Shown here one piece after another: positions 2,739 to 33,582 of a DNA stretch of 64,000 nt. The number at the start of each line of letters is the position of its first letter. Positions within the stretch are counted from its first letter, which is position 1. Origin of the DNA: Alphaproteobacteria bacterium. Its GTDB lineage: Bacteria; Pseudomonadota; Alphaproteobacteria; UBA828. The position numbers and the translations under genes were made by a program. The stretch lies in contig CAXXVO010000002.1 in NCBI GenBank assembly GCA_963422645.2, forward strand, positions 32,001-96,000. The letters are read 5' to 3'. Below the pieces are notes generated by a model that saw only the letters and a program-made list of their open reading frames with translations, was not told the DNA's origin and did no database searches.

Positions 2739-4007
2739 CAGGGCGAATTTATTGTCCGCCCGTCGAGCAGGGTGAGCTGAAGTCGGGTCTGGCCATTCCG
2801 TTCTCGATGTGGCAGTGTGCCGCTCATGGCGACGCTGCCGGTCCCAGGTTCGTTCATTGATCTGCGCGCGGTCACGGTGCGCCCGACCTGGGGGGGCGCA
2901 GGAGCACCGGCGCTGGGACCGGTTGGTGGAGCAGCACCACTACCTGCGGTTCCACGGCGTCATCGGCAAGGGCCTGCGCCATGTCGCGGTGCATGGCGAG
3001 ACTTGGCTCGCACTGATCGGCTGGCAGCCCGGCGCGTTCAAGCTGGCCGCGCGCGATCGCTGGATCGGGTGGTCGGCGGAGCAGCAGTTCAAGCGCCTTC
3101 ATCTGATCGCCAACAACTCGCGCTTCGTCATCCTGACTGCGCACCGGGTTCCGAACCTGGCCTCGCGGGTGCTGGGGCTGAGCCTGCGGCGGCTGTCTGC
3201 GGATATGCAGGCGGTGCATGGATATCCGGTCTTTCTGGCGGAGACGTTCGTGGATGTCTCGCGATTTGCCGGCACCTGCTACCGCGCGGCCAACTGGCGC
3301 TCGCTGGGGCTGACGCGCGGCTTCGCCCGCGAGCCCGGCGGGGCGGCGCGCTGGCGCCACCACGGCCAGCCCAAGGAGGTCTTCGTGTTCGAACTGACCG
3401 ACGGCGCCGACTGTGCGCTGAGCCGGCCCGAGATGCCGGCACACTGGAACGCCGAGCAACACACCGAGCCGATGGCCGCGCCCCGGCTGCGCAGTCTGTT
3501 CGAGTGTCTGGGCGAGGTGCCCGAGTACCGCCACGCCCGAGGCAAGCGCTATCCGCTCAACACCATTCTGACGCTTGCCGTCGCCGCCCGGCTTGCCGGA
3601 TACCGGGGGGTGAACGCATTCGCCCAGTTCGCCGCCCTGCTCTCCCAGGAGCAGCTCGAGGCGGTGGGCGCCTTCTGGAGCCCTTCCAAACAGCGCTACA
3701 CCCCGCCCGCGATCACCACCTTCCACAACGTCCTTGCCGCGCTTCCGCCAGAGACCCTGGACGACGCCATCGGCCAGTGGACCGGACAGCATGGCAGCGC
3801 GCACGCGCCCGTCGCCATGGACGGAAAGGACCTGCGCGGCGCCTCGAAACAGACCGAGGACGGGCGCAGGATGATGGTCGCGGCGGTGGAGCATGACAGC
3901 GGCGTGGTCCTCGGCCAGGTCGAGGTCGACAGCAAGAGCAACGAAATCCCGGCCGTGCGCGAACTCTCCGGCAGTCTCGACCTCACCGGCCGCATCGTCA
4001 CCATGGA
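2739..4007 (+). pseudogene. ISAs1-family transposase with N-terminal DUF4338/DruA-like domain; frameshifted at a G7 run (2890-2896) and 3'-truncated
   Basis: HHYL, NNSRF.IL..NLASRVL, ETFVD..RF.GTCY.AANW (DUF4338), then ISAs1 motifs (RGKRYPL, DGK.LRG, KSNEIPA, IVTMD) that stop abruptly. CAGGGC-type left end at 2739. Confidence 0.8.
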
Positions 4008-4237
4008 TGGATGGATGCGGACGTGGCTGGAACCCTTGGCGCAAGCGAACCTGGGCGTCCCTCGGCGTCCACGCCGCGTGGCAGAGCGTCCGGTATCAAC
4101 GCAGGGGATCAGCGGACAACACCAGGGCCATCGGAGCAGAGGCGGTGTGATGACCGTAACCATCCGCCGAAGACCGCGGGGTATTTGGGGCTGAGTTTGA
4201 CGGCGGGCAGTGCCGGTTGAAGCGCAGGGGTCTCGGC

Positions 4238-8936: not shown

Positions 8937-9236
8937 CTGCGATCGTGTCCATTATGGCCTTGGTGGACACCTCCAGGGTGTCCACTCCCAATCGGACAGC
9001 TTCACTCGATCACACTAGACCCGGTAGGCGGCCCACGCCGGAGGCTTACGGAGATCGTCCAAGGACGCCACGTGCGCCAGCAACCGTGAGAACACGCCAT
9101 CCGCCAGATCGACCATCGGTTGCTACCGACGCCGTACCTTCTCCGAGATGGACCGGTTGCACTGATATTGGCTTGTCAGTCACCGGCATGGCGACTTCAC
9201 ATGGTGACCTTCCATCCTGAGCAGGGTGGCTGATCG

Positions 9237-11750
9237 TTAGAGGTCCGGGAGGTAGTAGGCGACGAGCAATCTCGTGAGGATTTCGCCACGGAGCGCCAAA
9301 CGATCAACATCCTCTTTTGGCATGGCTGCGAAGTCGGTTGGGTAGTGCCGGACCTCGTCGCGTGTTGGGAGGTCCGCTGGAATCCAGGGCAAGGCATTGT
9401 CCTTCTGTCCGAGATAGGCCAACGCGAAGCCCGAGAGTTTTCCGTCGTCAGCAAAGTAGTGCAGGCGTTTTCGAGTAGCGTCCTGGACCTTGCGAAAGAC
9501 TGTGAGAAAGGACCGGTACATCCTAGTAGGCCAGCGGGTCGGGTAGCTGTCGGCGTCGAATAGGCCCGCGCCAGCGTCGCAACAAATGATGTACTCGGGG
9601 TCGAAAACATTCGTGCTGATAGAAGCTATCCGCCCAGGCTCCATCGGGTTAACGCCCAGATTCTCGAATACTCCACCATCGGTGAGCAGAACACGAGTCG
9701 GCGTACTGGTTTTCCCGTTCTTGACAAAGCGGTACTTGCGTTCAAGTGCAGGCAGAAAGACCGGATAGGCTGCCGAAGCGGCCACGGCATCGGCGACCAG
9801 AGCGTCTTCGGGGGCAATCGTTCCAAAACGCCAACAGCCGCTATGCCGACTTCCGAACCGGAATGCGGATCCGGTTCGCAGCTCGGTGGCATTGATAACC
9901 GTATCGAGCGATTCCCGGGAGACTTCGCGCACAATGGTATCGCCGAACATGGATTGAGCGATGACTTCCTTGAACGCCTCCGTGCGGCTGAACGTGCGCT
10001 CCACCGGCTGACTCACGCGATCAGGGTTGTTCGATGGGATCGCGACGCGAGCCAGGCGATGAAGTATGCGGGCGATGAAGCACAGACACGCGACAAAATG
10101 AACTCTGACAACCTTGCGGATGGAGCCCTGTAGAAACACCTGGCGAAAGATGTCGCGGTGAAGTCCTTTGTCCAGAAGCTGTAGTGCGCGCGCTTCAAAC
10201 TCCGGGAACGGATCGTCTGAATAGGCATACATTGCGGAGATCACAGAACCGCCAGACACACTCGAAATCACCTGGAGGCGATCAAGCAAATCCAGGTCGT
10301 GCAGAGCACGCAGACATCCCAGGTGAAACGCGATGGCGCGCGATCCCCCGCCGGAGAGCGCGAGCCCCACATTTCTCGGCTTCTGGAGGCGTGGCCCAAG
10401 CTGCGTCGTTGCTGCTGTGTTTCGTTCAATTCGAATGAAATTCTTGTCGGACAGTGTTGTCCTGAATGCATGCGCGCCAAGAATTGGATCGTCGGGATTC
10501 CCGGAGAGGATCAGGATCAAGCAGGTTCTTCGGGCGGAGACCGGGTCGGCTAGGAGCTGTGCGACGGCATCAATGTCGATATCGCTTGGGTGCGGCGAGG
10601 ACGAGGGGTGGGTATGCCAACTGCCGACGCAATCGACCGATCCGCGGAACCGGTCGCGCTTACTTTCGGCAGCCTCTATCATCCCTTTGACTCCGCAGGT
10701 GAAGTGCTCCTCGCTTGCGTCGCTGTCTGGCGGCGGTCCCTCCACCTCCGTGACCCAAAGCACGCCCGCGGCTTCGTTCAACTCACCAAATACCAGCCCG
10801 CCGGTCTCAATTCCTGGTCCCACCGTTCGCGCAGATCGTCTTGCCCATCCGCGCATTTCTCGCGCAGCAGTCGCAGATACCCGGACCGAATAGCCGCGCC
10901 CCTCGTCCCTGAGAGTATGTTCCGGGGGCCACGAAAACTCATGGACAGGTCCGGATTCTTCGCAAGTCCAGCCAAAGCCCGTGTGGCAGTCATCGGTCCC
11001 TTGGATCGCACGAGCGATAGAATTCAGCATGCGCGCTGACAGTCCTGCGAGATCGGCGTTGGAACCGATGAACGTCGGCTCCGAACAGCCAGGTTCTGGT
11101 TGAAATTCCTCGCCTGGCGCCGATCGCGGCCAGAAAGCCTGAAGCGGTCTCGCGAGCTGCGCACTTCGACACGCTTCGAGTTTGAGGCACCGAGTCAGGT
11201 CGAGCGTGCCGCCGCTATGGTTCCCTCGCGAAAGAGTAGCAATGCCGTTGGCGGCCTGACTGTCGATGGCGATGGATGCAATTGGAGGTCGCGTGTCCGG
11301 GGCGTCGCGTAGCACATGCTCCAGGGCCGTCCGAACCGCCATTGAGGCCGTGCAATCGAGCAGAAGGTCGACCATCGGAAGTGGATCGGCGCCTGTTACT
11401 CGTTGAATAAGGTCGCCGGTCGAAGCGACAGCTTCCAGATCGGGATCGATCCTTTTCAAGCGATCGGCCAGCGCGTGAGCCTTGAACCTTCCGATATCGG
11501 CGTCTTCAAAGCCTTGTCGTACTAGGAGACCGGGGGCGACCGTCTTGTTGTCTACAAGCTCTACCGTTCTGGCACCGGCCCGTACGACGCTTTCCGCCAC
11601 GTGGGTCCCTACAGCGCCGCATCCCCAAATCGCCACACGCTTACCGGAAAACCAAGCCATGGGGGATGCTTGATCCCGCCTCCTGGTGACCTCAGGACGC
11701 ATTTCCCTGACTCTGCACCAACCCACATCGGCCAAGACCGACCATTCCAC
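9237..11750 (-). CDS. ThiF/E1 + JAB/MPN peptidase + patatin phospholipase fusion (probably the 3' part of an E2-E1-JAB-patatin gene frameshifted at about 11770)
   Basis: E1: VAIWGCGAVG, VD..TV...LVRQ, DCTAS, PEPGCSEPTF. JAB: ETGG...GSWHTHP......SDID. Patatin: LALSGGGSRA, SSVSGGS, DGGV. Confidence 0.88.
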   Translation of the reverse strand: MEWSVLADVGWCRVREMRPEVTRRRDQASPMAWFSGKRVAIWGCGAVGTHVAESVVRAGARTVELVDNKTVAPGLLVRQGFEDADIGRFKAHALADRLKRIDPDLEAVASTGDLIQRVTGADPLPMVDLLLDCTASMAVRTALEHVLRDAPDTRPPIASIAIDSQAANGIATLSRGNHSGGTLDLTRCLKLEACRSAQLARPLQAFWPRSAPGEEFQPEPGCSEPTFIGSNADLAGLSARMLNSIARAIQGTDDCHTGFGWTCEESGPVHEFSWPPEHTLRDEGRGYSVRVSATAAREMRGWARRSARTVGPGIETGGLVFGELNEAAGVLWVTEVEGPPPDSDASEEHFTCGVKGMIEAAESKRDRFRGSVDCVGSWHTHPSSSPHPSDIDIDAVAQLLADPVSARRTCLILILSGNPDDPILGAHAFRTTLSDKNFIRIERNTAATTQLGPRLQKPRNVGLALSGGGSRAIAFHLGCLRALHDLDLLDRLQVISSVSGGSVISAMYAYSDDPFPEFEARALQLLDKGLHRDIFRQVFLQGSIRKVVRVHFVACLCFIARILHRLARVAIPSNNPDRVSQPVERTFSRTEAFKEVIAQSMFGDTIVREVSRESLDTVINATELRTGSAFRFGSRHSGCWRFGTIAPEDALVADAVAASAAYPVFLPALERKYRFVKNGKTSTPTRVLLTDGGVFENLGVNPMEPGRIASISTNVFDPEYIICCDAGAGLFDADSYPTRWPTRMYRSFLTVFRKVQDATRKRLHYFADDGKLSGFALAYLGQKDNALPWIPADLPTRDEVRHYPTDFAAMPKEDVDRLALRGEILTRLLVAYYLPDL

Positions 11751-11758
11751 GACCGCAA

Positions 11759-12655
11759 CTATCGCTGCACAGCCCGTTGTGCTGGATCATCGGCTGACGA
11801 CGAGACATTCAGCTCTCGCAGCTTGTCTGCGTCGGCAGTAGCGATTTCCCATACTGCGAGATGCTGAAGGGCTCGACCGCCCGGGTCTATTCGGCGCATC
11901 GGGGTACCGAGCACTACGGCCAGCGGGGTCACGGCGCCGCTGTTTCGCGCGTACAGCCCGAGTTGGCGGATGAACGGACCGTAGTCGAGACCGTGAGATT
12001 CCAGCTCTTTCAATAGGGAGTGGACAGTCTTTGGGTATTCGAAAGGCAGGTTCCTATGGAGCAAGATTGCGGGAGCGAAGTGGGCCGGCAGTTCATGACC
12101 ATGCTCCTGCCAGCCGACGATTTCGGTGCGATGGTGTCGTTCACGTAGTTCCGCCAACCCGAACCAAGGCGAGTCGTCAACCGGAGGAGTATCCGCCCTC
12201 GGCACAAATAAGCGGTCAACGATTGGATAGGCGACCGGCGGATGGAGTGGCGCGTCGTCGGGATCGAGGTTGTTGACTGCTGCGTCACGTATCCAGGAGT
12301 CTAACCGCTTGACAAAGCCGTACATCCCGTTTTCCGGGCGCCAGTCGGCGGAACTCCCGTAGAGGCAGAGTTGCCTCCGCCACTGGACGTGATTGAAGCC
12401 GGAGAAGCGAACATGCGGAGTCACGACCAGTGGATGCTCGAACGGGAAGGTAGGAGGTACGAGCACGCAGAAAGCCTCACGTGCTCGCACCGGTAGCCCA
12501 TCCTCGCCCCGCTCCAGGCCGTCGAATCGAATGCTTATCTCGAACAGGCGATAGGCGTCGACAAGCTGAGTGGCTTCGTAGAGCTGTACGGTGCCGTCCG
12601 AGGCATCCGCAATCTCCCTAAGCTGTTCCCAGGCGAGTTCGAAGGCATCGGCCAT
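11759..12655 (-). CDS. Prokaryotic E2 (UBC-like) domain protein, 5' part of the frameshifted fusion
   Basis: VPPTFPFEHP...HVQW.RQLCLY...DWRP...FVKRL..W (E2 with Cys in LCLY). TGATG coupling to the upstream MBL. Confidence 0.8.
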   Translation of the reverse strand: MADAFELAWEQLREIADASDGTVQLYEATQLVDAYRLFEISIRFDGLERGEDGLPVRAREAFCVLVPPTFPFEHPLVVTPHVRFSGFNHVQWRRQLCLYGSSADWRPENGMYGFVKRLDSWIRDAAVNNLDPDDAPLHPPVAYPIVDRLFVPRADTPPVDDSPWFGLAELRERHHRTEIVGWQEHGHELPAHFAPAILLHRNLPFEYPKTVHSLLKELESHGLDYGPFIRQLGLYARNSGAVTPLAVVLGTPMRRIDPGGRALQHLAVWEIATADADKLRELNVSSSADDPAQRAVQR

Positions 12656-13779
12656 CAGGCCCGGCCGTACGTGTGAGCACTTTCGGGAGCTTCGTTTGAG
12701 CCCTTCGCTGCATCGGCGGCTTCCGAAGCGGTCATGGCGGCGGTCGCCACGCCGGCGAGCACGATCTTTCCATCCTTAAGTTCAGCCATGATCGGCTCGT
12801 CCTGATCCATTGTGCAAAGAAAGGACTCGGTGGTCGACTCGTACTGCGTCTTGGCCTTTGCATGGGGAGGGTTGTCACCGGCCTTGTTGGAGGACGGTAC
12901 CGTATTGGAGCTGGATATGACCCGATTGGGTTTCAAAGACGCCTTCTCCATTTCCTCAACGATGTGCTTCTTGAGCTTCTCCTCGTCGTCCCCTTCCTCC
13001 TTCCAGTACATCGCGGCCTTTGAGCAGTGGTGCGGTGCCAGCAGCACGTTCCATGCGAGATCGTCGTCTTCGTTGACGCCAAATATTCTCTTGATGATCG
13101 GGTAGGAAAGATCACCGAGGAGCAGCGCGCGCAGTATCTTGTCTCCGTCGTAAAGCGTGACCTGCATGCCGAGGCTCGTGTCGTTCCGCTCGCCGGCGTC
13201 ATCGTCCTTGAACGGGGCATGGACAAATGCCCGGAACTTGTCAGACACGTCCTTTTCGTCAATCGTGGTCACTTCGTTACCCGGTATCGTCAACCGATCT
13301 TCCGGAAAATCCTTGTAATCGTCCTCTTCCAGCAACTCCGAGTAGCCGAAAATACGCACGCGGTCGCCGGCGCCTGGATCGCCCTTGGCCTCGATCGTCT
13401 TCTTGACGCGCCGTTCCGCCTCCTTCTTGAAATCCTTCGCGTCGTCGCAGAGATCCTTATTATACTCGGCAAAGATTCTGGGCGTGAACCACAACTCGCC
13501 AATATCTACCTTGTCGAGGAGGTCCGAGAAACCCCGGCAATGGTCCTGATCAGGGTGAGTCAGAGCAAACACGGCCAGGTACGGTCGTCCATTGACCTTG
13601 GGCAACCGTTCTGAGAGCTCATCGACAACGGCCCAGCTGGCATCGTCGTCGTCGTCGGACTTTTGCAGATGATTGAGATCAACCTGCAGATACGTCTTCG
13701 AGTCGACAACAATGGATGTGCTGTCGCCATTTGCCACCGGCCAGAAGACCAGTCCGCGGTCAGGAAGTTCGAAGGCCAT
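12655..13779 (-). CDS. Metallo-beta-lactamase-fold hydrolase with a low-complexity C-terminal tail
   Basis: FWPVANGDST, LTHPDQDH, LLGD, APHHCS, ISSS. Ala-rich tail ending SAHTYGRA. Confidence 0.85.
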   Translation of the reverse strand: MAFELPDRGLVFWPVANGDSTSIVVDSKTYLQVDLNHLQKSDDDDDASWAVVDELSERLPKVNGRPYLAVFALTHPDQDHCRGFSDLLDKVDIGELWFTPRIFAEYNKDLCDDAKDFKKEAERRVKKTIEAKGDPGAGDRVRIFGYSELLEEDDYKDFPEDRLTIPGNEVTTIDEKDVSDKFRAFVHAPFKDDDAGERNDTSLGMQVTLYDGDKILRALLLGDLSYPIIKRIFGVNEDDDLAWNVLLAPHHCSKAAMYWKEEGDDEEKLKKHIVEEMEKASLKPNRVISSSNTVPSSNKAGDNPPHAKAKTQYESTTESFLCTMDQDEPIMAELKDGKIVLAGVATAAMTASEAADAAKGSNEAPESAHTYGRA

Positions 13780-13874
13780 GTTTCATGCTCCGTTTGGTTT
13801 TGGTTTTCGTGTTTGGCAAGGTTGATGCAGTGCTGACTTGAACGCGGTCTAATGGTTTCGGGAAGCAAAGATCA

Positions 13875-15755
13875 TCATCGTACACACCGTGTGACAAACC
13901 CATTGCCGCCGCGTGCTGTAAGCAACGACACGCCATCTTCGATGTTTGTTTGAAAGACTTGTCGAGCTACTTTGCCGTACAGCTTGACTGCCTTTGCGTC
14001 TGGATGCCCGTATTGATTGTCGACCCCGGCGCTGATCAAGACCGTGTCCGGGGACACAAGTAGCGCCATTTTGGGATGAGCCGCATTCTTTGAGCCGTGA
14101 TGCGGGGCACTCAAGACGTCGGAAGAAAGACTATTTCCGAACAATCTGGTTAACCGCTTATGCACATGGCTCCGGTTCGATCAACATGCTGTAGGTAAGG
14201 GGTTTTGCATTGGTGGCGATGCGGAAGAGCGAGCGGAAAGCAGCGTGGCGGGTTTTGCGGCGGTTGAAGCGAAAGGCGAACTCATCGAGATAGGCCTGCA
14301 GATGCTTGCGGCGCAGCCCGTGGTAGACGCCTCGCGCCCATCCTTTGAGGTTGGAGAAGACTTGGTGGATCCACGGCAGGACGAGGTGAGCGGCGGTCTT
14401 CCCGACGACATGGACATTGTGGCGATCGGCGGGGACCGCAGCGTAGCCGGACCAGCCGTCGGTTTTCGCGATGGCGTCGGGATCGGCGGCGGTTTCGACG
14501 AAGTGTCCGAGGTCGGCGGCGCCGTAGGAGGAGATTTCGGCCAGCCGCAGGCGGCCCGGGATGGTTCCATCCCCCAGTTCGATGGCGCCGACGATGAGCA
14601 TCTTGCCGTCGTGGCTGCGTCCTTGCCCTCCGGTGGGAGGATCGTCTTTGGTCCGGAATGGAAGGCTGGCCTCGTCGATTTCCACCAGGCCCGACAACGG
14701 GTTGCGCTCGGGGTCGACCATGCTGGCGCGCAGCTTGTGGGCGAGCAGCCAAGCGCTGCGGTAAGAGCCGATACCGAGCTGTTTCTGGAGCTGCAGGGCA
14801 GAGATGCCGTTGGAGTGGGTCGCCATCAGGTAGGCGGCCCAGAACCAGACGGTGAGCGGCAGCTTGCTGGCGTGCAGGATCGTCCCGGCCGTCACCGAGG
14901 TCTGCCGGCGGCAGCCGGCGCACTCGAAGGTGTGTGCTTTTCTGCGCAGCGCCCATCCCTTTTCATGGCCGCACGCGGGACAGACGAAGCCGTCCGGCCA
15001 GCGCATTTCGATCAGCCAGGCGGCGCAGGCGTCATCGTCCGGGAACATGTGCTGGAAGGCGAGGAGGCTGTCGGCGACCTGTTTCATGTGGTGGCTCCGT
15101 CGGCAGGAACGTATAGGCAACATTCTACCCGTTCTCCCGCCCTAACCTCAACCTCAACATCTGGTGGCAAACTCTCGCGACCGGAGCCATGTGCATAAGC
15201 GGTTCTGGTTATTGTGTCCCAGCGGTCGTTTTCCGTATCTCCCGTTATCAGATAAGGAAACCCATTCCCGCCAATTCCCGACAACTTGAGGACTATGCTA
15301 CAGTTGTTGGAATTATCCATGTCTTCACTATGCGGAGAAAACAGCTCATAGGAAAAATACTTGGAAAGCCCATTCAGTTTTCGCGAATGGAGGTCCAACC
15401 GTACCGAGAGCTTCTTTAGGGGCTTTCCTGTATTCCTTCGCCGGCGCTCATGCTTGTTGATAACCTTGAACACGTCGGTGGCATTATCGGTATCCTTGTA
15501 ATACTTCGGATACATGATCCAATTGGGTTTGTACTCTCCCAGAATGTTGTCAACCCCATACGGGTCAGCATGGTCGTTATCGAACCCTGTCAATACGAGG
15601 CCCGCTAAGTCCTGATTGCGGAGAAACACCTGCAATTGCTTCTCGATTGCTTTAGCGTGTTCGTCGGGCCAGCGCGAATCGACGATCACGGCTTCTCCGC
15701 GGTGGCGGATGGCGATCAACTCACCCTGTCCTACGTATACCGTCAGCGTCTGCAT
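13875..15755 (-). pseudogene. ComEC/Rec2-like MBL-fold protein split by an IS1595 insertion
   Basis: 5' part: MQTLTVYVGQGE, TGFDNDH, NSNNCSIVL, ITGDTE..RWDTITR. 3' part: LFGNSL..DVL.APHHGS, ISAG..NQYGHP. Removing the IS and one TSD copy rejoins the halves in frame. Confidence 0.88.
14153..15203 (-). mobile_element. IS1595-family element, complete; transposase at about 14158-15087
   Basis: Perfect 24-bp TIRs ACCGCTTATGCACATGGCTCCGGT and 8-bp TSD TCTGGTTA (14145-14152, 15204-15211). CPAC/CAGC, VEIDE, KTDGW, EFAFRFNRR. Confidence 0.95.
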
Positions 15756-15757
15756 TG

Positions 15758-16684
15758 CTATTGCCCACTCCGTTCGCTGATGGCCCAATACAGCGATTGG
15801 TTCAATTCTCTCTCGAACGCACTCACCGCCTGTGCCGCAGACCCGAACTGCCGTCCGCTGAAGTCCTCGTAGACCCCTGCGCACACGCTTGGCAGCTTCT
15901 TGGCCAGAACTTGGTAATAGGAAGCCTCTCCGTCCTCCGATGTGTCTATTTCGGGGACCGTGACATCTATCGATGACCCGTCAACCAGTTCCAGCTCTCC
16001 CTTCCAATACAGAGTGCCGGCGCGTTTCGACCAGTACGGCTGAAGCGACGGGAAGAGGTCTGGAATGGTCGCACTATCCCTGGTCCGGACTTCCTTGCTG
16101 TGCCCCGCCTCTGTCTTGCTCAGCTCCGGCCTCGATCCAAGGGGCCAAACGGGTGCGTCTCTCGTAAGGGTGACTTTCGCGGGTTCGACCTCGTAAACGG
16201 CATCGTCACCCCGTAACAGGATGTAGTGCCTGACGCTGTAGCGTGACGCCGCCTCTCCACCAGCCAGCCGGGAAACGACGAGTAGTGCATAAAAGAAATC
16301 AAGGTTGTGCTTTTCGTGATTCACTATCCTTCTGTAGGTTGCAATGTCGCCGCCGCTGAGGTTTGGAAATCCATTCACATGATGTGTGTGCCAATTGCCA
16401 AGATGCTCAACTTCAGGGCGCGCGCTCTCGATCTGGCGAAATATCTCCGCTTGGTAGTCGCCGTCCTGGAAGAAACTTGTGGTGGACCTCCGCGCATTCG
16501 GTCCAGCCTCGATGACACCGGTAACCGTGACCTCCAATGAGCCATCGGCGCAGCGCCGAAACCGTCCTACGATCCGCCCACCCGTCTCGTCATGGTCATA
16601 ACGATCGCAGTCATCGAAGATCGACTCCAGTACCAGCGAAGGGATCGATAGCGTAGCGTTGGCATCCTTTAGGTCGCTATTCAT
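15758..16684 (-). CDS. JAB/MPN+ metallopeptidase with an additional C-terminal domain
   Basis: DETGG, LGNWHTHH......SGGD (E, HxH, S, D). RBS GGAGG before the ATG at 16684. About 110 extra residues follow. Confidence 0.85.
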   Translation of the reverse strand: MNSDLKDANATLSIPSLVLESIFDDCDRYDHDETGGRIVGRFRRCADGSLEVTVTGVIEAGPNARRSTTSFFQDGDYQAEIFRQIESARPEVEHLGNWHTHHVNGFPNLSGGDIATYRRIVNHEKHNLDFFYALLVVSRLAGGEAASRYSVRHYILLRGDDAVYEVEPAKVTLTRDAPVWPLGSRPELSKTEAGHSKEVRTRDSATIPDLFPSLQPYWSKRAGTLYWKGELELVDGSSIDVTVPEIDTSEDGEASYYQVLAKKLPSVCAGVYEDFSGRQFGSAAQAVSAFERELNQSLYWAISERSGQ

Positions 16685-17519
16685 TGGAACCTCCACAAAC
16701 TAGGCAACCCTCCTGCCGATGCAGGGTGATTCTTTGCAGCTCGAAGCTCTTGCTGAATGGATGTATCGGTCGATTTCCCCAAACCACGTAATTTTCCGGG
16801 ATAGCGGGAAGAAACGCTGGCCGTTGTGGGGCCAGCCGAGCCAAAGCGTCCATCACATAGCGCACGTGAAAAAGCGTGATGAACCCGATGTCTACCGCGA
16901 GGCCTGGGGAATCCTTTATCTCTTGAGGATCCAATCCGTACATTTGCTCCCGGTCTTCTTCGGAAGCGAGATCAATCTCCCTGACACCGTCTCGGAATTT
17001 AGTTCGTTCGAGAACACCCTCCAGACAAGCAAGACACCCACTCTCGCCCGGACGATAACCAAACACCTCTCCGCCAATCCCGCGGGTGAACACTTTTCCG
17101 ACAACGAATGGTGTTTCATTTCGAACACACAATTCGTTCATTTGAAATCGTGTCGGATCATTGTCGGTGGCAAGTACGACGATGTGGGAGCGTTGGACCT
17201 CACTCTCCAAGCCATGCCACTGCATCAGATCTTCTTCGACTTTCAGTACAGAAATATCTGGGTTTCGATCCTTGAGTACGTCTTCCAGTGCATCAACCTT
17301 CTTGCGACCGACAAATCGAAGTCCGCAAACATGCCGAATCACATTTTCGGATTTCATCACGTCTTTATCGATCAACGTGAAGTGTTTGACGCCTGACATG
17401 ACAAGTTGGAGCGCAACCTGGCCCCCGCCAGACCCGCAACCTGCGATGAGTACACGGGATTCGGCGAAGGCCTCGACGTCAAACAGACCTTCAATTCTCG
17501 CAAATAGGTTTTCGTGCAA
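16677..17519 (-). CDS. ThiF/MoeB-family E1 adenylyltransferase
   Basis: TTG start with GGAGG RBS. FARI, LIAGCGSGG, IDKD.....NVIRH, VGRKKV, ATDN, and Zn pairs CLAC and CLVC. Confidence 0.9.
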   Translation of the reverse strand: MHENLFARIEGLFDVEAFAESRVLIAGCGSGGGQVALQLVMSGVKHFTLIDKDVMKSENVIRHVCGLRFVGRKKVDALEDVLKDRNPDISVLKVEEDLMQWHGLESEVQRSHIVVLATDNDPTRFQMNELCVRNETPFVVGKVFTRGIGGEVFGYRPGESGCLACLEGVLERTKFRDGVREIDLASEEDREQMYGLDPQEIKDSPGLAVDIGFITLFHVRYVMDALARLAPQRPAFLPAIPENYVVWGNRPIHPFSKSFELQRITLHRQEGCLVCGGSNE

Positions 17520-17520
17520 T

Positions 17521-18048
17521 TCAGGTGCCCTCCCGCTCGGGCCAATTGCCGGTAGTGGACCACAATGCATAGCCGCTTAGCCATCGCCGACACAGTTTCA
17601 AGGTATGAACCACATCGTGTCGCCCGGGATTCCAGGTTTCCATGGCGCCAAAAATGCAAAGAGAGCCGTCAAGCCAGAGATGAGGAGATGATGGGTCTAT
17701 CGGATCGGCTGTAACCACCGGGGACTTGTTCGGATACCCGTGGGGTAGCGTGATGCATAAACGGATATCCTTCTCTTGGCCTGGTTCAGTAAGAATTAAT
17801 TGTATTTCCCTATTCTCCGTTATAGATACGCGAAATGGTTCACTTTCGGCAGCAAGACCATCAAGTTCCTGCGATATCCTGTTCGGGGAGATATCAGGCA
17901 GGAAGACGGAAATGGGCACCAGACATGCCTTTTGTTGTCCGCTTCTCTCTACAACATAGGCACGACCGCGTACCGCGACGTCATCCAGAATTTCTCCGGG
18001 TCGGCTGCGGAGATCCATCATGGATAGAGGTTGGAAGTCGATGTGCAT
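17521..18048 (-). CDS. Phd/YefM-like domain fused to an E2 (UBC-like) domain
   Basis: N-term SMMDLRSRPGEILDDV...GRAYVVERSGQQKACLVP (Phd/YefM pattern). C-term LPHGYPNKSP...SPHLW.DGSLCIF...WNP...RWL..Y.LW..TGNWP (E2). Confidence 0.75.
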   Translation of the reverse strand: MHIDFQPLSMMDLRSRPGEILDDVAVRGRAYVVERSGQQKACLVPISVFLPDISPNRISQELDGLAAESEPFRVSITENREIQLILTEPGQEKDIRLCITLPHGYPNKSPVVTADPIDPSSPHLWLDGSLCIFGAMETWNPGRHDVVHTLKLCRRWLSGYALWSTTGNWPEREGT

Positions 18049-18054
18049 GGCAGA

Positions 18055-18429
18055 TCAATGGGCAATGCCCGCACCGGGCCAACGACGCTGAACGCAATAG
18101 ACTTCGTATTTGGCTAGCCATTTGGCCGCTCGCGCAATGACGAAGCGGAGGTCATGACGTCCAGGGTTCCAAAAATTCGGATGCAAGTAGCAAAGTTGAT
18201 TATCGGTGTACCGATGAGGGGAGGGTTGCAGCGCAGGTGTCCGGACGAAAACCTGGGGCATCGCATTCGGGTACGACTGCGGGAACGTTACTGCCAGTGT
18301 GTAGTAGCGGAGCGACGTCTGTAGCGCGACCAAAGCCATCAATCCGCCTGCGTTGGTGGGGTGCGCCTCGACGTAGTCGAAGTGCTGCTGCGCGGTCGCA
18401 ATATCCCGTTGGATTCTTGTCAGATTCAC
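18055..18429 (-). CDS. Stand-alone prokaryotic E2 (UBC-like) protein, 124 aa
   Basis: GTG start overlapping the upstream TGA. FPQSYPNAMP.V...SPHRY.DNQLCY....WNP...KWL.KYEVY.....WPG. Confidence 0.8.
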   Translation of the reverse strand: MNLTRIQRDIATAQQHFDYVEAHPTNAGGLMALVALQTSLRYYTLAVTFPQSYPNAMPQVFVRTPALQPSPHRYTDNQLCYLHPNFWNPGRHDLRFVIARAAKWLAKYEVYCVQRRWPGAGIAH

Positions 18430-18620
18430 CGCGAGTCTCCACGGGCGCTGTATTCGCCTCCTAGGTCTTCCCTCATCGTGATCGGCTTGCGATAGCCGCT
18501 TTCCGCAGCAGCGCTTCCGCCGAGCTCCCGCACCTCGCCGTTGGGCAGGATTTCGATCGGGGAGTCCTCCTCCTCGTCCAAGATCGCCTCGAGTTCGTGG
18601 ATTGTCGGTTTTCTCGCCAT
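18426..18620 (-). CDS. 64-aa acidic peptide, candidate conjugated modifier (...REDLGGEYSARGDSR)
   Basis: First gene of the operon. AGGTGA RBS, GTGA coupling to the E2, GG motif near the C-terminus. Confidence 0.7.
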   Translation of the reverse strand: MARKPTIHELEAILDEEEDSPIEILPNGEVRELGGSAAAESGYRKPITMREDLGGEYSARGDSR

Positions 18621-18644
18621 TTCGCGTCACCTATGAGGATCGTG

Positions 18645-18682
18645 CGGTTATGATAGTTGTACAGTTCATAACCGGCTGTCAA
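18645..18682 (-). promoter_or_regulatory. Promoter (-35 TTGACA) with palindromic operator CGGTTATGA-N12-TCATAACCG and a TGTACA core
   Basis: TGTCAA at 18677-18682, 9-bp inverted arms at 18645-18653 and 18666-18674, TGTACA at 18658-18663. The -10 element is weak or ambiguous. Confidence 0.65.
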
Positions 18683-18889
18683 GGGAAGAAGCCGGCTCTA
18701 GCGGATGGTGTCCTGGGCATCGCGCTACGCGGCACCAAGCCGTGGACATGACGGCGAGCCATGGTCAGGCGTCGTCGAGGGCAAGGCGTTGGAGGAGGGA
18801 GGTGCAGCCCTCCCGCACGATGGCGGGGGCCCGCGCCCGTTTCTGAGGATGGAGGAAGAATCGAGGCGTCGCGGCGAGGCCGGCAAAGG

Positions 18890-31973: not shown

Positions 31974-33260
31974 TCAATGGATGATCGCGGCAAGCCGCTC
32001 CTGCAACCCCTCAAATGCCAGATCGTTCATGAATTGCCGTCGCCAGAGTAAACTTTGATCAGCCTCGCTGATTTGAGCCTCGGTACAGACCGCGTCCCAG
32101 TTGGCCGCGATCGCTGCGATCTGGTCCTTCATGATCGCCAGCGCGCGTTCGTCCGTGAGAAGGAACTTGTTGGCGGCGGCGAGGCAGAGCGACAGTTGGC
32201 TGCGGCGCTCGCGTCCGTGGATCTGCATGGCCTGCGAGGCTTCGCGTCCGGTCCTCGATTGTGGGCAAATGTCGTAGGCCGGCGTGAGTGCAAGACTGGC
32301 GCCGTCCCAGAAGGCGGCGTGGTTCCGGGCATGGTCGTCCGTGTTGCCGACAAGAATATTGAAGGTCATGCGCGCGAAAAGTTCCTTCAGCATCTCGGCC
32401 GGAGCGGTGAAGCGCGCCCGGACGATGTCGGCGAGCGCTTCGTAGGACGCGTGGGCTGCGAAGCGCTCGTCGAGGCCGAGCAGGGTCAACGCGGAAACCA
32501 TGGCAAGCCGCTTCCAGCCGCCCTCCGCAGGCTCCCGGTCGAAGCGCCGGATCAGGAGAACATCTTTGTTCATCGCCCGCACGAGCTCGACCGGCGCAAC
32601 ATTTAGGCCGACAGTGCTCGCGAGGCGCATGGCGATGAACTCGGCCTTGACGACGCTGAAGGTGTCGGTCGACGAGGAGAATTTCGCGACATACTTGATG
32701 TCGCCGTCCCGGATGAGCGCCTTCGGCCTCGCTCCCCCGATCGCCGTGCCGTGCTGCAATGCCTCGGCCAGGTCGGGCGCCAGCGGCAGGCCCCGATCGA
32801 CGCGGTCGGCCGAATCCAGCATGCGTTCGAGCGTTTCGTGGTCGGCCTCGCGGGGAACGTAGTCCCTGGGAGAAGCCTGAAAGTCGAGCGCCCCGGTGCG
32901 GTCGGAGCCGGACTGGAGCATGAAGGTGAGCTCGTCGAGGTCGGCAATCTCACTGGCCTCGCCACCCGCTCCGGCGAGGCGATGAGCGATCACCCGGCGC
33001 CCCCAGGCATCCGGCGAGGCGTCGCGTAGGGCATTGGCGATCTCGAGTGGCGGTTCGGGCACGATGGCGCCGGCGCGCAAGGGCAATTCGGGCGCATAGA
33101 CCGGGATCGCGTCTTTCCTGGTCAGATACGAACGACCATAGGTGAAGACGAAGTGATCGTCTTCGGCGTGAATGCGGCCTGCGACCACGGGCACGGTCTT
33201 GCCTGGCAGCCATATCCAGACGAAAGCCTCGCGCGGCCGGGAGGCGTCAGAAGTCATCAT
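31974..33260 (-). CDS. hipA: HipA-family Ser/Thr kinase toxin
   Basis: Couple_hipA N-terminus (F.YG.SY, PELPL, DASPDAWG), GGARPK, RRFDR, GNTDDHARN, LTPAYD. Confidence 0.92.
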   Translation of the reverse strand: MMTSDASRPREAFVWIWLPGKTVPVVAGRIHAEDDHFVFTYGRSYLTRKDAIPVYAPELPLRAGAIVPEPPLEIANALRDASPDAWGRRVIAHRLAGAGGEASEIADLDELTFMLQSGSDRTGALDFQASPRDYVPREADHETLERMLDSADRVDRGLPLAPDLAEALQHGTAIGGARPKALIRDGDIKYVAKFSSSTDTFSVVKAEFIAMRLASTVGLNVAPVELVRAMNKDVLLIRRFDREPAEGGWKRLAMVSALTLLGLDERFAAHASYEALADIVRARFTAPAEMLKELFARMTFNILVGNTDDHARNHAAFWDGASLALTPAYDICPQSRTGREASQAMQIHGRERRSQLSLCLAAANKFLLTDERALAIMKDQIAAIAANWDAVCTEAQISEADQSLLWRRQFMNDLAFEGLQERLAAIIH

Positions 33261-33582
33261 CGACCTCGCGCCGGGACTTGCGGATCGAGCCCGGCATCAG
33301 GGCGAGCTTGTCGTCGGTCCGCTCAAGTTGCGGCGCGAGTGTCGTCGCCTCCGGAACGAACAGATCGACGCCGGTAAGGGTGGCGGCTTCCAGCACTAGG
33401 CCGATCGCGACCGAGGGATTGCCTTTCTCGATGAGCTGCAACGTACTTCGGGCCACTCCGATACGGGCCGCGAGATCGGTTTCGGACATGCGCCGGCGCT
33501 TCCGGGCGAGCCTGACCTGCTTGCCCAGGAGAAGGAGCGCCTCTTCGGTAAGGCGCGAGTAGGAGCGCGGTGTGCTCGGCAT
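33247..33582 (-). CDS. hipB: XRE-family HTH antitoxin (HipB-like)
   Basis: VRLARKRRRMSETDLAARIGVARSTLQLIEKG. Overlaps the hipA start. Confidence 0.85.
   Translation of the reverse strand: MPSTPRSYSRLTEEALLLLGKQVRLARKRRRMSETDLAARIGVARSTLQLIEKGNPSVAIGLVLEAATLTGVDLFVPEATTLAPQLERTDDKLALMPGSIRKSRREVDDDF

Follow-up and report, generated by a model that had tools for sequence, protein, structure and literature searches.

Organization of the locus

The subject of this analysis is a ubiquitin-type gene cluster in a 64,000-nt stretch of DNA from an alphaproteobacterium of the UBA828 lineage (assembly GCA_963422645.2, contig CAXXVO010000002.1, positions 32,001 to 96,000), hereafter the window; coordinates are window positions unless they are prefixed by one of the surveyed loci (L plus a number), and surveyed genomes are denoted by G plus a number. 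Eight open reading frames (ORFs), all on the minus strand, lie between 9237 and 18620, and searches of three domain libraries, namely Pfam, PADLOC v2 and NCBIfam 20.0, agree on three E2-fold, two E1 and two JAB domains among them. The cluster is made up of two separable ubiquitin-type units, which we call module A (13875-18620) and module B (9237-13779), and the eight genes are better counted as seven, one of them being split by a frameshift. Module B is a known anti-phage system to which a lipase has been fused, whereas module A is an undescribed relative whose enzymes may attach a very small protein tag.

Module A opens with the gene for a 64-residue mini-protein (18426-18620) that ends in ...DLGGEY plus a 7-residue tail and that is the candidate tag. 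Its stop codon overlaps the GTG start (GTGA) of the gene for E2a (18055-18429), a 124-residue protein with a catalytic-type cysteine, Cys80, that matches the PADLOC E2 models (best 4.8e-11). After a gap of 6 nt comes PhdE2 (17521-18048; 175 residues), for which an AlphaFold2 (AF2) model and its structural matches indicate a Phd/YefM-like N-terminus joined to a ubiquitin E2 variant (UEV)/E2 fold, followed by E1a (16677-17570), a single-domain adenylating enzyme of the ThiF/MoeB/MccB type (Pfam ThiF, 1.3e-30), and by the overlapping gene for JABx (15758-16684, within a 312-residue ORF), a JAMM peptidase with a conserved C-terminal domain (Prok-JAB, 1.3e-4; PADLOC JAB, 1.5e-14). The sixth gene, 2 nt further on, encodes MBL1, which has a ComEC-type metallo-beta-lactamase (MBL) fold. 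Its 5' part (15204-15755; TIGR00361 ComEC_Rec2, 2e-11) and its 3' part (13875-14152; TIGR00361, 5.3e-10 at model positions 592-660, aligning with the C-terminal 93 residues of relatives) are separated by an IS1595-family insertion sequence (IS) at 14153-15203 on the same strand, recognized in Pfam by DDE_Tnp_IS1595 (5.7e-26) and Zn_ribbon_IS1595 (1e-12).

Module B follows after 95 nt. Its first gene encodes the MBL-fold enzyme MBL2 (12655-13779; NF058524, 2.1e-86) and its second, now in two pieces, a Cap2_3-type protein: the front piece (11759-12655) carries a Prok-E2_A domain (E2b; PF14457, 1.2e-18), and the second piece (9237-11750; 837 residues) carries E1, JAB and patatin phospholipase domains (ThiF, 3.8e-18; Prok-JAB, 5.2e-8; Patatin, 9.9e-20 at residues 463-701).

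A sequence-only reading of this DNA, which preceded our work, had described co-oriented, mostly translationally coupled genes with these domains, in these numbers, behind one promoter. The shared strand, the overlaps and short gaps, the domain assignments and the counts were all recovered in our searches. The promoter was not: a perfect TTGACA hexamer can be read at 18676-18681 (minus strand), upstream of the first gene, and might be a -35 element, but a scan for consensus promoters found none ahead of the mini-protein gene.

Module B is a 6A-MBL system with a fused patatin

Module B can be assigned to a named family. MBL2 scores 290.2 bits against NF058524, the NCBIfam model for the MBL-fold protein of the anti-phage 6A-MBL system (cut-off 220), with a match covering 1-330 of 346 positions, and the two pieces of the split gene score 80.9 bits (4-254) and 253.2 bits (271-653) against the 665 positions of NF058523 (cap2_3; cut-off 320), a simple sum of 334. 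The MBL gene directly adjoins the E2-E1-JAB gene, the stop codon of MBL2 overlapping the start of E2b (ATGA) at 12655. In Iyer, Burroughs and Aravind (2006), a triple-module E2-E1-JAB protein beside an MBL appears as row 6a of Table 1; a review attributes the experimental confirmation of 6A-MBL as anti-phage to van den Berg et al. 2024 (PMC13276650), and a preprint lists 6A-MBL among jumbo-phage defenses. On this sequence evidence, module B is the known 6A-MBL system, in a variant with a patatin lipase fused on, and the earlier placement of module B in an MBL-associated E1-E2-JAB group is thereby given a name.

Of 17 listed ORFs of the MBL2 type, 15 have a conserved glycine at a distance of 0-4 residues from the C-terminus; here the protein ends ...HTYG-RA. 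This position accords with a scheme in another preprint, in which MBL pathways conjugate their own enzyme by way of a fused E2-E1 (PMC11601596). Among 400 other genomes of the phylum, two (G276 and G049) have the combination of MBL2, E2-E1-JAB and patatin on its own, with no module A gene within ~8 kb. Module B has already been described, and therefore only module A is a candidate for novelty.

Module A is widespread and mobile

To survey module A we used JABx. Its relatives number 1491 at E<=1e-3, the best 120 of which are nearly all 298-315 residues long and none of which is informatively named. A JABx profile search restricted to one genome per species yielded 74 module A loci, of which 68 have at least 2.1 kb upstream and serve for counting the upstream genes and 69 have at least 0.9 kb downstream and serve for MBL1. 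The loci share the order mini-protein, E2a, PhdE2, E1a, JABx, MBL1, with the genes all on one strand. The mini-protein ORF is present in 64/68 loci, with a truncated copy in L037 found by tblastn and degraded sequence in L005, L056 and L074; E2a and E1a each occur in 67/68, a separate PhdE2 in 63/68 and MBL1 in 66/69. In L052, JABx and MBL1 form a single fused ORF of 617 residues.

The hosts come from at least ten phyla, among them Pseudomonadota, Acidobacteriota, Binatota, Gemmatimonadota, Nitrospirota, Planctomycetota, Verrucomicrobiota, Chloroflexota and Elusimicrobiota, and include one Methanosarcinales archaeon. The JABx tree, a quick tree with Shimodaira–Hasegawa-like approximate likelihood ratio test (SH-aLRT) support on which some effector labels are imperfect (L023, for example, has a patatin ORF and is labeled MBLx2), is at odds with the host phyla. 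The archaeal copy is a complete six-gene cassette (L035:8037-11754, from a metagenome-assembled genome, or MAG) nested among bacterial rows of this tree, which suggests either inter-domain transfer or a binning error. Integrases and transposases are found in the flanks of module A, and the matches among 145 flanking ORFs searched with PADLOC include two CD-NTase (cGAS/DncV-like nucleotidyltransferase) cyclases (best E 5.8e-137), two SoFic, one DrmD and one pAgo-associated TIR protein; because two of these ORFs are cyclases, some module A cassettes adjoin CBASS (antiphage signaling based on cyclic oligonucleotides).

What follows MBL1 is variable. The next gene is a patatin in 31 loci, a 254-residue protein with four hydrophobic segments in 14, MBL2/6A-MBL in 12, a 226-residue membrane protein in 9 and other MBLs in 7 + 7, and on the quick JABx tree the label of this slot requires 31 changes against a minimum of 6. 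MBL2 with E2-E1-JAB stands behind MBL1 on the same strand in 11 of the 74 loci, in ten directly (gaps of 17-155 nt) and in L048 with a patatin between. The 6A-MBL units found there are of two subtypes, a fused patatin form of 1136-1180 residues and a form of ~740 residues with a separate patatin. The other 63 loci have no same-strand 6A-MBL pair directly behind module A; three of them, L011, L026 and L033, have an MBL2-like ORF on the opposite strand.

No model specific for any module A protein was found in PADLOC v2 or NCBIfam 20.0, where only generic E1, E2 and JAB models match, and literature searches, the reach of which did not extend to Burroughs 2011 (PMC5938088), van den Berg et al. 2024 or supplements, returned no description of it. 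Module A is a real, widespread and undescribed variant of the bacterial ubiquitin-type defense theme. The sequence-only reading had made the whole locus a candidate new defense system, had found in module A no match to a named system, and had accepted that the proposal would fall if the genes never occurred together elsewhere. That objection fails because the module A genes co-occur in 74 loci, and in the two libraries just named the lack of a match to a named system holds beyond the generic models. The claim of novelty survives for module A as a candidate; it does not survive for module B, which is already described, nor for the locus as a unit, the two modules being separable rather than obligate partners.

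The LGGEY mini-protein

The mini-protein belongs to no Pfam, PADLOC or NCBIfam family and has no relative in the PDB at E<=10 by profile search, and a library search returned 587 representative clusters at E<=1e-3, mostly of short proteins. A 67-sequence alignment has 17 invariant columns, among them the motif ILPNGE and the residues L53, G54, G55, E56 and Y57, and conservation extends over the whole 57-residue sequence rather than over a core alone. The LGGEY motif is invariant (67/67), and what comes after it is not: 19 of the 67 sequences terminate exactly at GGEY, and the rest continue for 1-14 unconserved residues, mostly with G, A or S first. To judge by the sequences, a conserved end with a variable tail is the pattern of a putative modifier precursor trimmed by a peptidase. 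Because LGGEY is invariant and the gene is present in 64 of 68 loci, in addition to the truncated L037 copy, the mini-protein is the best candidate for the conjugated moiety, which is the role that had been proposed for the short first gene. AF2, run on the single sequence, predicts one helix and one hairpin without a beta-grasp, at low confidence (predicted local distance difference test, pLDDT, 67).

The enzymes of module A

Among the two E2-fold proteins of module A, E2a retains Cys80 in 67/67 sequences. PhdE2 is different; its AF2 model, built with 66 sequences, has a pLDDT of 92.5, and residues 44-175 match the Bub E2-fold protein, the Tsg101/Vps23 UEV, UFC1 and CdnG-E2 with Z scores of 8.8-10.4, while at the cysteine position 48 of 66 sequences have Cys, 15 have Ser and 3 have another residue. 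Residues 4-45 of the model superpose on the RelB2 antitoxin 3g5o_D (Z 7.0, root-mean-square deviation 1.2 A over 42 residues), which we take to be of the Phd/YefM type, and on the N-terminal domain of VapB46 (Z 6.9). In other words, the modeled N-terminus has the beta-alpha-alpha-beta-beta fold of Phd/YefM-type antitoxins; the Pfam sequence match is below threshold (16.8 versus 29.8 bits).

E1a is 280-297 residues long and consists of one ThiF domain. Because relatives align from about residue 13-21, the true start of E1a is probably later than 17570. The best PDB matches of the E1a profile are MccB (2.8e-19), MoeB (5.6e-18) and ThiF (2.1e-17), and across 69 sequences the protein keeps a GxGxxG motif and two CxxC pairs, with C160 and C163 invariant and C270 and C273 present in at least 90%. 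ThiF-type enzymes carry their cysteine between the CxxC pairs, where E1a has no Cys and instead an invariant DSPGL motif. A serine intermediate of the kind reported for Bub enzymes is a lead here.

The JAMM part of JABx occupies about residues 1-165, the ATG start at 16684 is conserved, and the JAMM motif is intact, E37, H103, H105, S114 and D117 being invariant in 19 sequences. A PDB profile search returned one JAB peptidase only (residues 27-116) and nothing for the C-terminal half, and for residues 170-308 an Atlas search gave a best score of 0.76, below the level of a usable lead. For MBL1, a profile built from 63 relatives finds no PDB chains other than those of ComEC/Rec2 (1.3e-16 to 9.1e-13); intact relatives are 273-290 residues long and keep residues of metal-ligand type. 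Unlike MBL2, MBL1 has unconserved C-termini of variable length with no terminal glycine (64 relatives).

Orphan mini-protein genes in viral contigs

Relatives of the mini-protein are also encoded at 16 viral-contig loci in IMG/VR (L075-L090), and none of the 16 contigs has a cassette enzyme within up to 8 kb of the gene. In 13 of the 16 copies the GGEY motif is kept, and each of these continues with G or A and then a short tail. A portal gene lies directly upstream of the mini-protein ORF in L078 (L078:7995-9065) and L083 (L083:8001-8174), and one small ORF away in L084 (L084:7977-8180); the L078 copy is fused to a further 294 residues with a hydrophobic segment. Some other contigs have genes for terminase, major head, scaffold, polymerase, primase or helicase in the vicinity, and because of these PHROG matches we regard the viral contigs as phage genomes. 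Two tested L088 ORFs, one L082 ORF and the 294-residue L078 extension matched no PHROG family at 1e-5. The phage orphan copies are plausibly decoys.

Origin, decay and surroundings of the block

The block at 9050-18741 that holds both modules on the minus strand has a close counterpart in L002, an unrelated Paracoccaceae MAG, with blastn identities of 88.8% over 14150-9050 and 89.4% over 18741-15205 and with homology ending at both block borders (9050 and 18741). Its GC content is 0.54-0.58 against 0.65 for the window, which bears out the earlier observation that part of the locus is AT-richer than its host, and the JABx protein was found in 0/43 other genomes of the host's own family. The ~89% identity with sharp ends, the low GC and the absence from the 43 host-family genomes mark the block as horizontally acquired, and these comparisons indicate that the two modules arrived together as one block.

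Both modules have since been damaged; the sequence-only reading had noted an IS and a frameshift. The IS in MBL1 is 1,051 bp long, has 24-bp terminal inverted repeats and an IS1595-type transposase, and is flanked at 14145-14152 and 15204-15211 by the 8-bp target duplication TCTGGTTA; by blastn it is missing from the corresponding L002 block. To look at both lesions we compared contigs, not reads, from four public runs (X1, X2, X3 and X5) of two studies, one of which runs is possibly the source sample. In X2 and X3 the IS contig has ~85 to 310x the depth of its flanks, and contigs break at the IS ends, which have many different flanks, so the IS is a highly multiplied multi-copy element in the organism or the community. 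An apparent joint of 14176 to 15180 in run contigs was rejected as a repeat-end artifact, there being 25 letters only on one side. The frameshift is a 2-bp TG insertion near 11768-11771, on the minus-strand gene, by alignment with L002, L004 and L068, where the protein is a single ORF of 1136-1138 residues; L005 and L007 also have an unsplit ORF, of 1180 residues. An assembly error was considered and rejected: the contigs of all four runs are letter-identical across the site, with no indels listed, so the frameshift is not the error of one assembly, with the proviso that one run may be the source sample. A GTG start lies 9 nt past the new stop, on account of which two polypeptides might still be made from the split gene. 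Since the IS cuts MBL1 and the frameshift splits the module B fusion, the copies of both modules in this genome are probably impaired. In other words, the locus is a transferred defense block that is already decaying, and its value here is as a pointer to the family.

The surroundings of the block are mostly transposases (IS66, IS1595, IS4-like and IS3) together with a primase-like gene. Of the defense neighbors named in the sequence-only reading, the hipBA pair is there (31977-33582, minus strand; HipA_C 2.5e-50, with a Y4mF/HipB-type antitoxin upstream); AbiE, restriction-modification, SIR2 and McrC could not be confirmed: the flanking ORFs that were tested, a subset of those in the window, match no such family in the three domain libraries at E<=1e-3. 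Between 19220 and 27005 lie six ORFs (365, 304, 326, 266, 166 and 305 residues) that have coding-like GC content at third codon positions and match none of the families in the three libraries at E<=1e-3; the leading two, with a stop/start overlap, are what had been labeled AbiE. A second IS1595-type transposase at 1613-2578 belongs, by blastn, to a different element from the IS in MBL1. A 461-residue ORF at 2809-4194 (plus strand) fuses a match to DruA of Druantia (1.6e-21) with DDE_Tnp_1-associated and DDE transposase domains, an odd combination.

Proposed mechanism and alternatives

What, then, might module A attach, and to what? The reading we favor, to which we give a probability of about 0.58, is that the block combines a 6A-MBL-patatin unit with a separable module A whose E1, E2 and JAB proteins attach a mini-tag in phage defense, and each mechanistic step of it is one that we infer. 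The product of the first gene, 57-64 residues long, would be the tag. JABx would trim the variable tail behind ...LGGEY; the MccB/ThiF-like E1a, with ATP, would activate the exposed C-terminus; and E2a would take over the tag on Cys80 and hand it to lysines of a target, conceivably a head-module protein of the phage or an effector belonging to the cassette itself. PhdE2 might serve as a non-catalytic partner or a regulator, and JABx might additionally reverse the tagging. The response would be delivered by the nuclease-like, ComEC-type MBL1 together with the swappable downstream gene, be it a patatin or membrane protein or, in the present locus, an entire 6A-MBL unit, and the orphan tag copies of phages could serve as decoys. 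A bolder version, which we hold only tentatively and at somewhat less than even odds, would make the LGGEY protein a new class of E1/E2-conjugated modifier without a beta-grasp, acting in a widespread bacterial and archaeal antiviral cassette, with phage decoys encoded beside portal and head genes and with the Phd-UEV protein coupling tagging to regulation.

Several observations weigh against the favored reading. The lack of a ubiquitin fold is not proven, because the mini-protein model is a single-sequence, low-confidence one. The GGEY end, with 19 of 67 sequences stopping after Tyr, implies either that Tyr is the activated residue or that EY is removed beforehand, and we know of neither for an E1. 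The E1 thioester step is uncertain because E1a has no Cys between its CxxC pairs, and the best solved relative of E1a, MccB, modifies a peptide rather than tagging proteins. Complex prediction for E1a with the mini-protein gave a median of 0.56 against 0.00 for the best control, with runs sharing at least 66% of contacts and a partner pLDDT of at least 61, and was graded as weak support: of 80 solved complexes, 58 reach the score mark used, as do 2 of 110 mismatched pairs, and scores that reach it but do not exceed 0.60, which were obtained for 7 of the 80 solved complexes and for both passing mismatches, are more often wrong than right unless the pairing is likely beforehand. The Cys of PhdE2 is replaced in 18 of 66 sequences, for which reason it is probably a non-catalytic partner, and PhdE2 is missing altogether in four loci (L029, L055, L062 and L067), which thus have a five-gene form. 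As for the link to phages, the PADLOC scan of the flanks of module A was made without a control set, the defense context in the window is thin, hipBA being the sole defense gene found among the flanking ORFs tested, and tblastn of the mini-protein against GenBank phages gave no match.

Are modules A and B one integrated system, in which A controls the enzymes of B or B is the dedicated effector arm of A? We think this unlikely. The 11 of 74 loci with MBL2 and E2-E1-JAB after MBL1 involve two 6A-MBL subtypes, the whole pair has moved jointly between phyla, and chance adjacency is improbable given how rare the 6A-MBL-patatin unit is (2/400 other genomes of the phylum). Against this, other genes fill the slot in the 63 loci without a same-strand 6A-MBL directly behind A, module B stands alone in G276 and G049, and module B owns its E1, E2 and JAB as well as a substrate with a C-terminal Gly. 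Moreover, 12 of 13 6A-MBL-linked rows fall within one 24-row JABx clade, so the association is partly inherited. A different possibility keeps module A whole but makes MBL1 the conjugated moiety, as is the enzyme in type II CBASS and in 6A-MBL, and leaves the mini-protein as a regulator, an inhibitor or an antitoxin-like partner of PhdE2, a role that the antitoxin-type N-terminal domain of PhdE2 would suit and that the weak complex prediction would leave room for. The known relatives do conjugate the enzyme itself, according to PMC11601596, but the ends of MBL1 are unconserved, variable and without a terminal Gly in 64 relatives, the invariant LGGEY with its variable tail is the processed-modifier pattern, and the conserved Gly of module B belongs to MBL2, just where the known paradigm expects it; we therefore consider MBL1 a distinctly improbable tag.

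The rank of MccB (2.8e-19) as best solved relative of E1a, the small precursor-like gene at the head of the operon and the hydrolase within it would also fit a pathway like that of microcin C or of a ribosomally synthesized and post-translationally modified peptide (RiPP), with the E1-like enzyme modifying the C-terminus of a precursor peptide to yield a toxin or a signal. This we judge very unlikely: MoeB and ThiF score nearly as well as MccB, and the MccB match is to the adenylation domain only (chain 111-264 versus E1a 26-179), so that E1a lacks the N-terminal peptide-binding region of MccB. Such a pathway would also have to accommodate a JAMM isopeptidase and two proteins of E2 fold, in one of which a Cys is invariant, while no transporter was found among the recurrent neighbors and conservation takes in the whole 57-residue sequence and not just a core. 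To a last possibility, that module A is a housekeeping, Pup-like system that tags for degradation or regulation outside phage defense, we give hardly any credence. A small, Pup-sized and probably largely disordered tag with a GG-containing end and the weak defense context in the window speak for it; the sporadic occurrence (0/43 in the host family), the transfer across phyla and domains, the swappable patatin and membrane-protein partners, the repeated linkage to 6A-MBL and the orphan phage copies speak against it.

If the favored reading of module A as a mini-tag conjugation cassette is true, its significance is easily stated. To our knowledge, all free-standing modifiers activated by an E1 are beta-grasp proteins. 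A cassette in which individual E1, E2, UEV-like and JAB proteins handle a tiny, dedicated tag without that fold would solve the problem of protein tagging in a new way, and it is present in many phyla and in one archaeon. The cassette is small and intact natural copies exist, and the phage orphan copies are candidate inhibitors, so the idea lends itself to direct tests. According to published accounts, type II CBASS, type II Pycsar and 6A-MBL attach their own enzyme, and Bil and Bub use beta-grasp ubiquitin-like proteins (Ubls).

Comparison with known systems

Module B matches 6A-MBL in its gene order, an MBL enzyme and then E2-E1-JAB, and in the Gly near the MBL C-terminus; its Cap2_3 protein differs by the C-terminal patatin and the frameshift split. 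Like 6A-MBL, module A combines an MBL-fold protein with E1, E2 and JAB, but its E1, E2 and JAB are separate small proteins, E1a and JABx scoring 57.1 and 45.6 bits against NF058523 (cut-off 320). It has in addition a second, UEV-like E2 with a Phd domain and the LGGEY mini-protein, and its MBL1 is of the ComEC type, with an unconserved C-terminus and 17.1 bits against NF058524 (cut-off 220). Compared with type II CBASS, the E1, E2 and JAB proteins of the locus match the PADLOC Cap2, Cap3 and E2 models, a patatin is a frequent partner and the substrate, in module A by a low-confidence prediction, is not a beta-grasp protein; the differences are that the E1 and E2 of module A are unfused and that the locus has no CD-NTase, as had been claimed. 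No cyclase ORF was found in the locus, where the sole cyclase model to match, weakly, is PDLC00816, which falls on E2a (1.8e-6) and PhdE2 (5.2e-5) in their E2-fold regions (model positions 453-542), and because there is no CD-NTase no nucleotide signal is evident.

The Bil system (BilABCD: Ubl, E2, JAB and E1) likewise has separate E1, E2 and JAB proteins and a small modifier gene at the front, and the logic proposed here, the tagging of phage structural proteins, is the same. According to PMC11601596, however, Bil uses a beta-grasp Ubl as its modifier and an E1 with two adenylation domains in tandem, whereas the modifier of module A is modeled as a helix and a hairpin and E1a is a single domain of ~280 residues. 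Where the Bil Ubl has a C-terminal Gly, the conserved end of the mini-protein is GGEY, its model being of low confidence (pLDDT 67). With Bub (6E/DUF6527), module A shares a diverged set of E1, E2 and peptidase, and the best structural match of the PhdE2 E2 fold is a chain of the Citrobacter Bub complex (Z 10.4). Bub is reported to use serine intermediates, and E1a has DSPGL in place of a Cys between its CxxC pairs; module A differs in having no DUF6527 protease (no Pfam match in any locus ORF), no predicted beta-grasp Ubl and an E2a with its Cys in 67/67 sequences.

Two further systems are comparable in the modifier rather than in the whole machinery. The tag of module A is similar in size to Pup, a mostly unstructured modifier of ~60 residues with a GG near its end, and is itself probably mostly unstructured with a GG near its end; the enzymes differ, those of module A being of the E1/E2/JAB type, with no PafA/Dop-type ligase among the Pfam and NCBIfam matches of the eight ORFs. 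Relative to the MccB/microcin C7 pathway, E1a lacks the N-terminal region of MccB, and module A has an E2 and a JAB and no export genes, but MccB is the best solved relative of E1a, and both enzymes would activate the C-terminus of a peptide that is not a beta-grasp protein.

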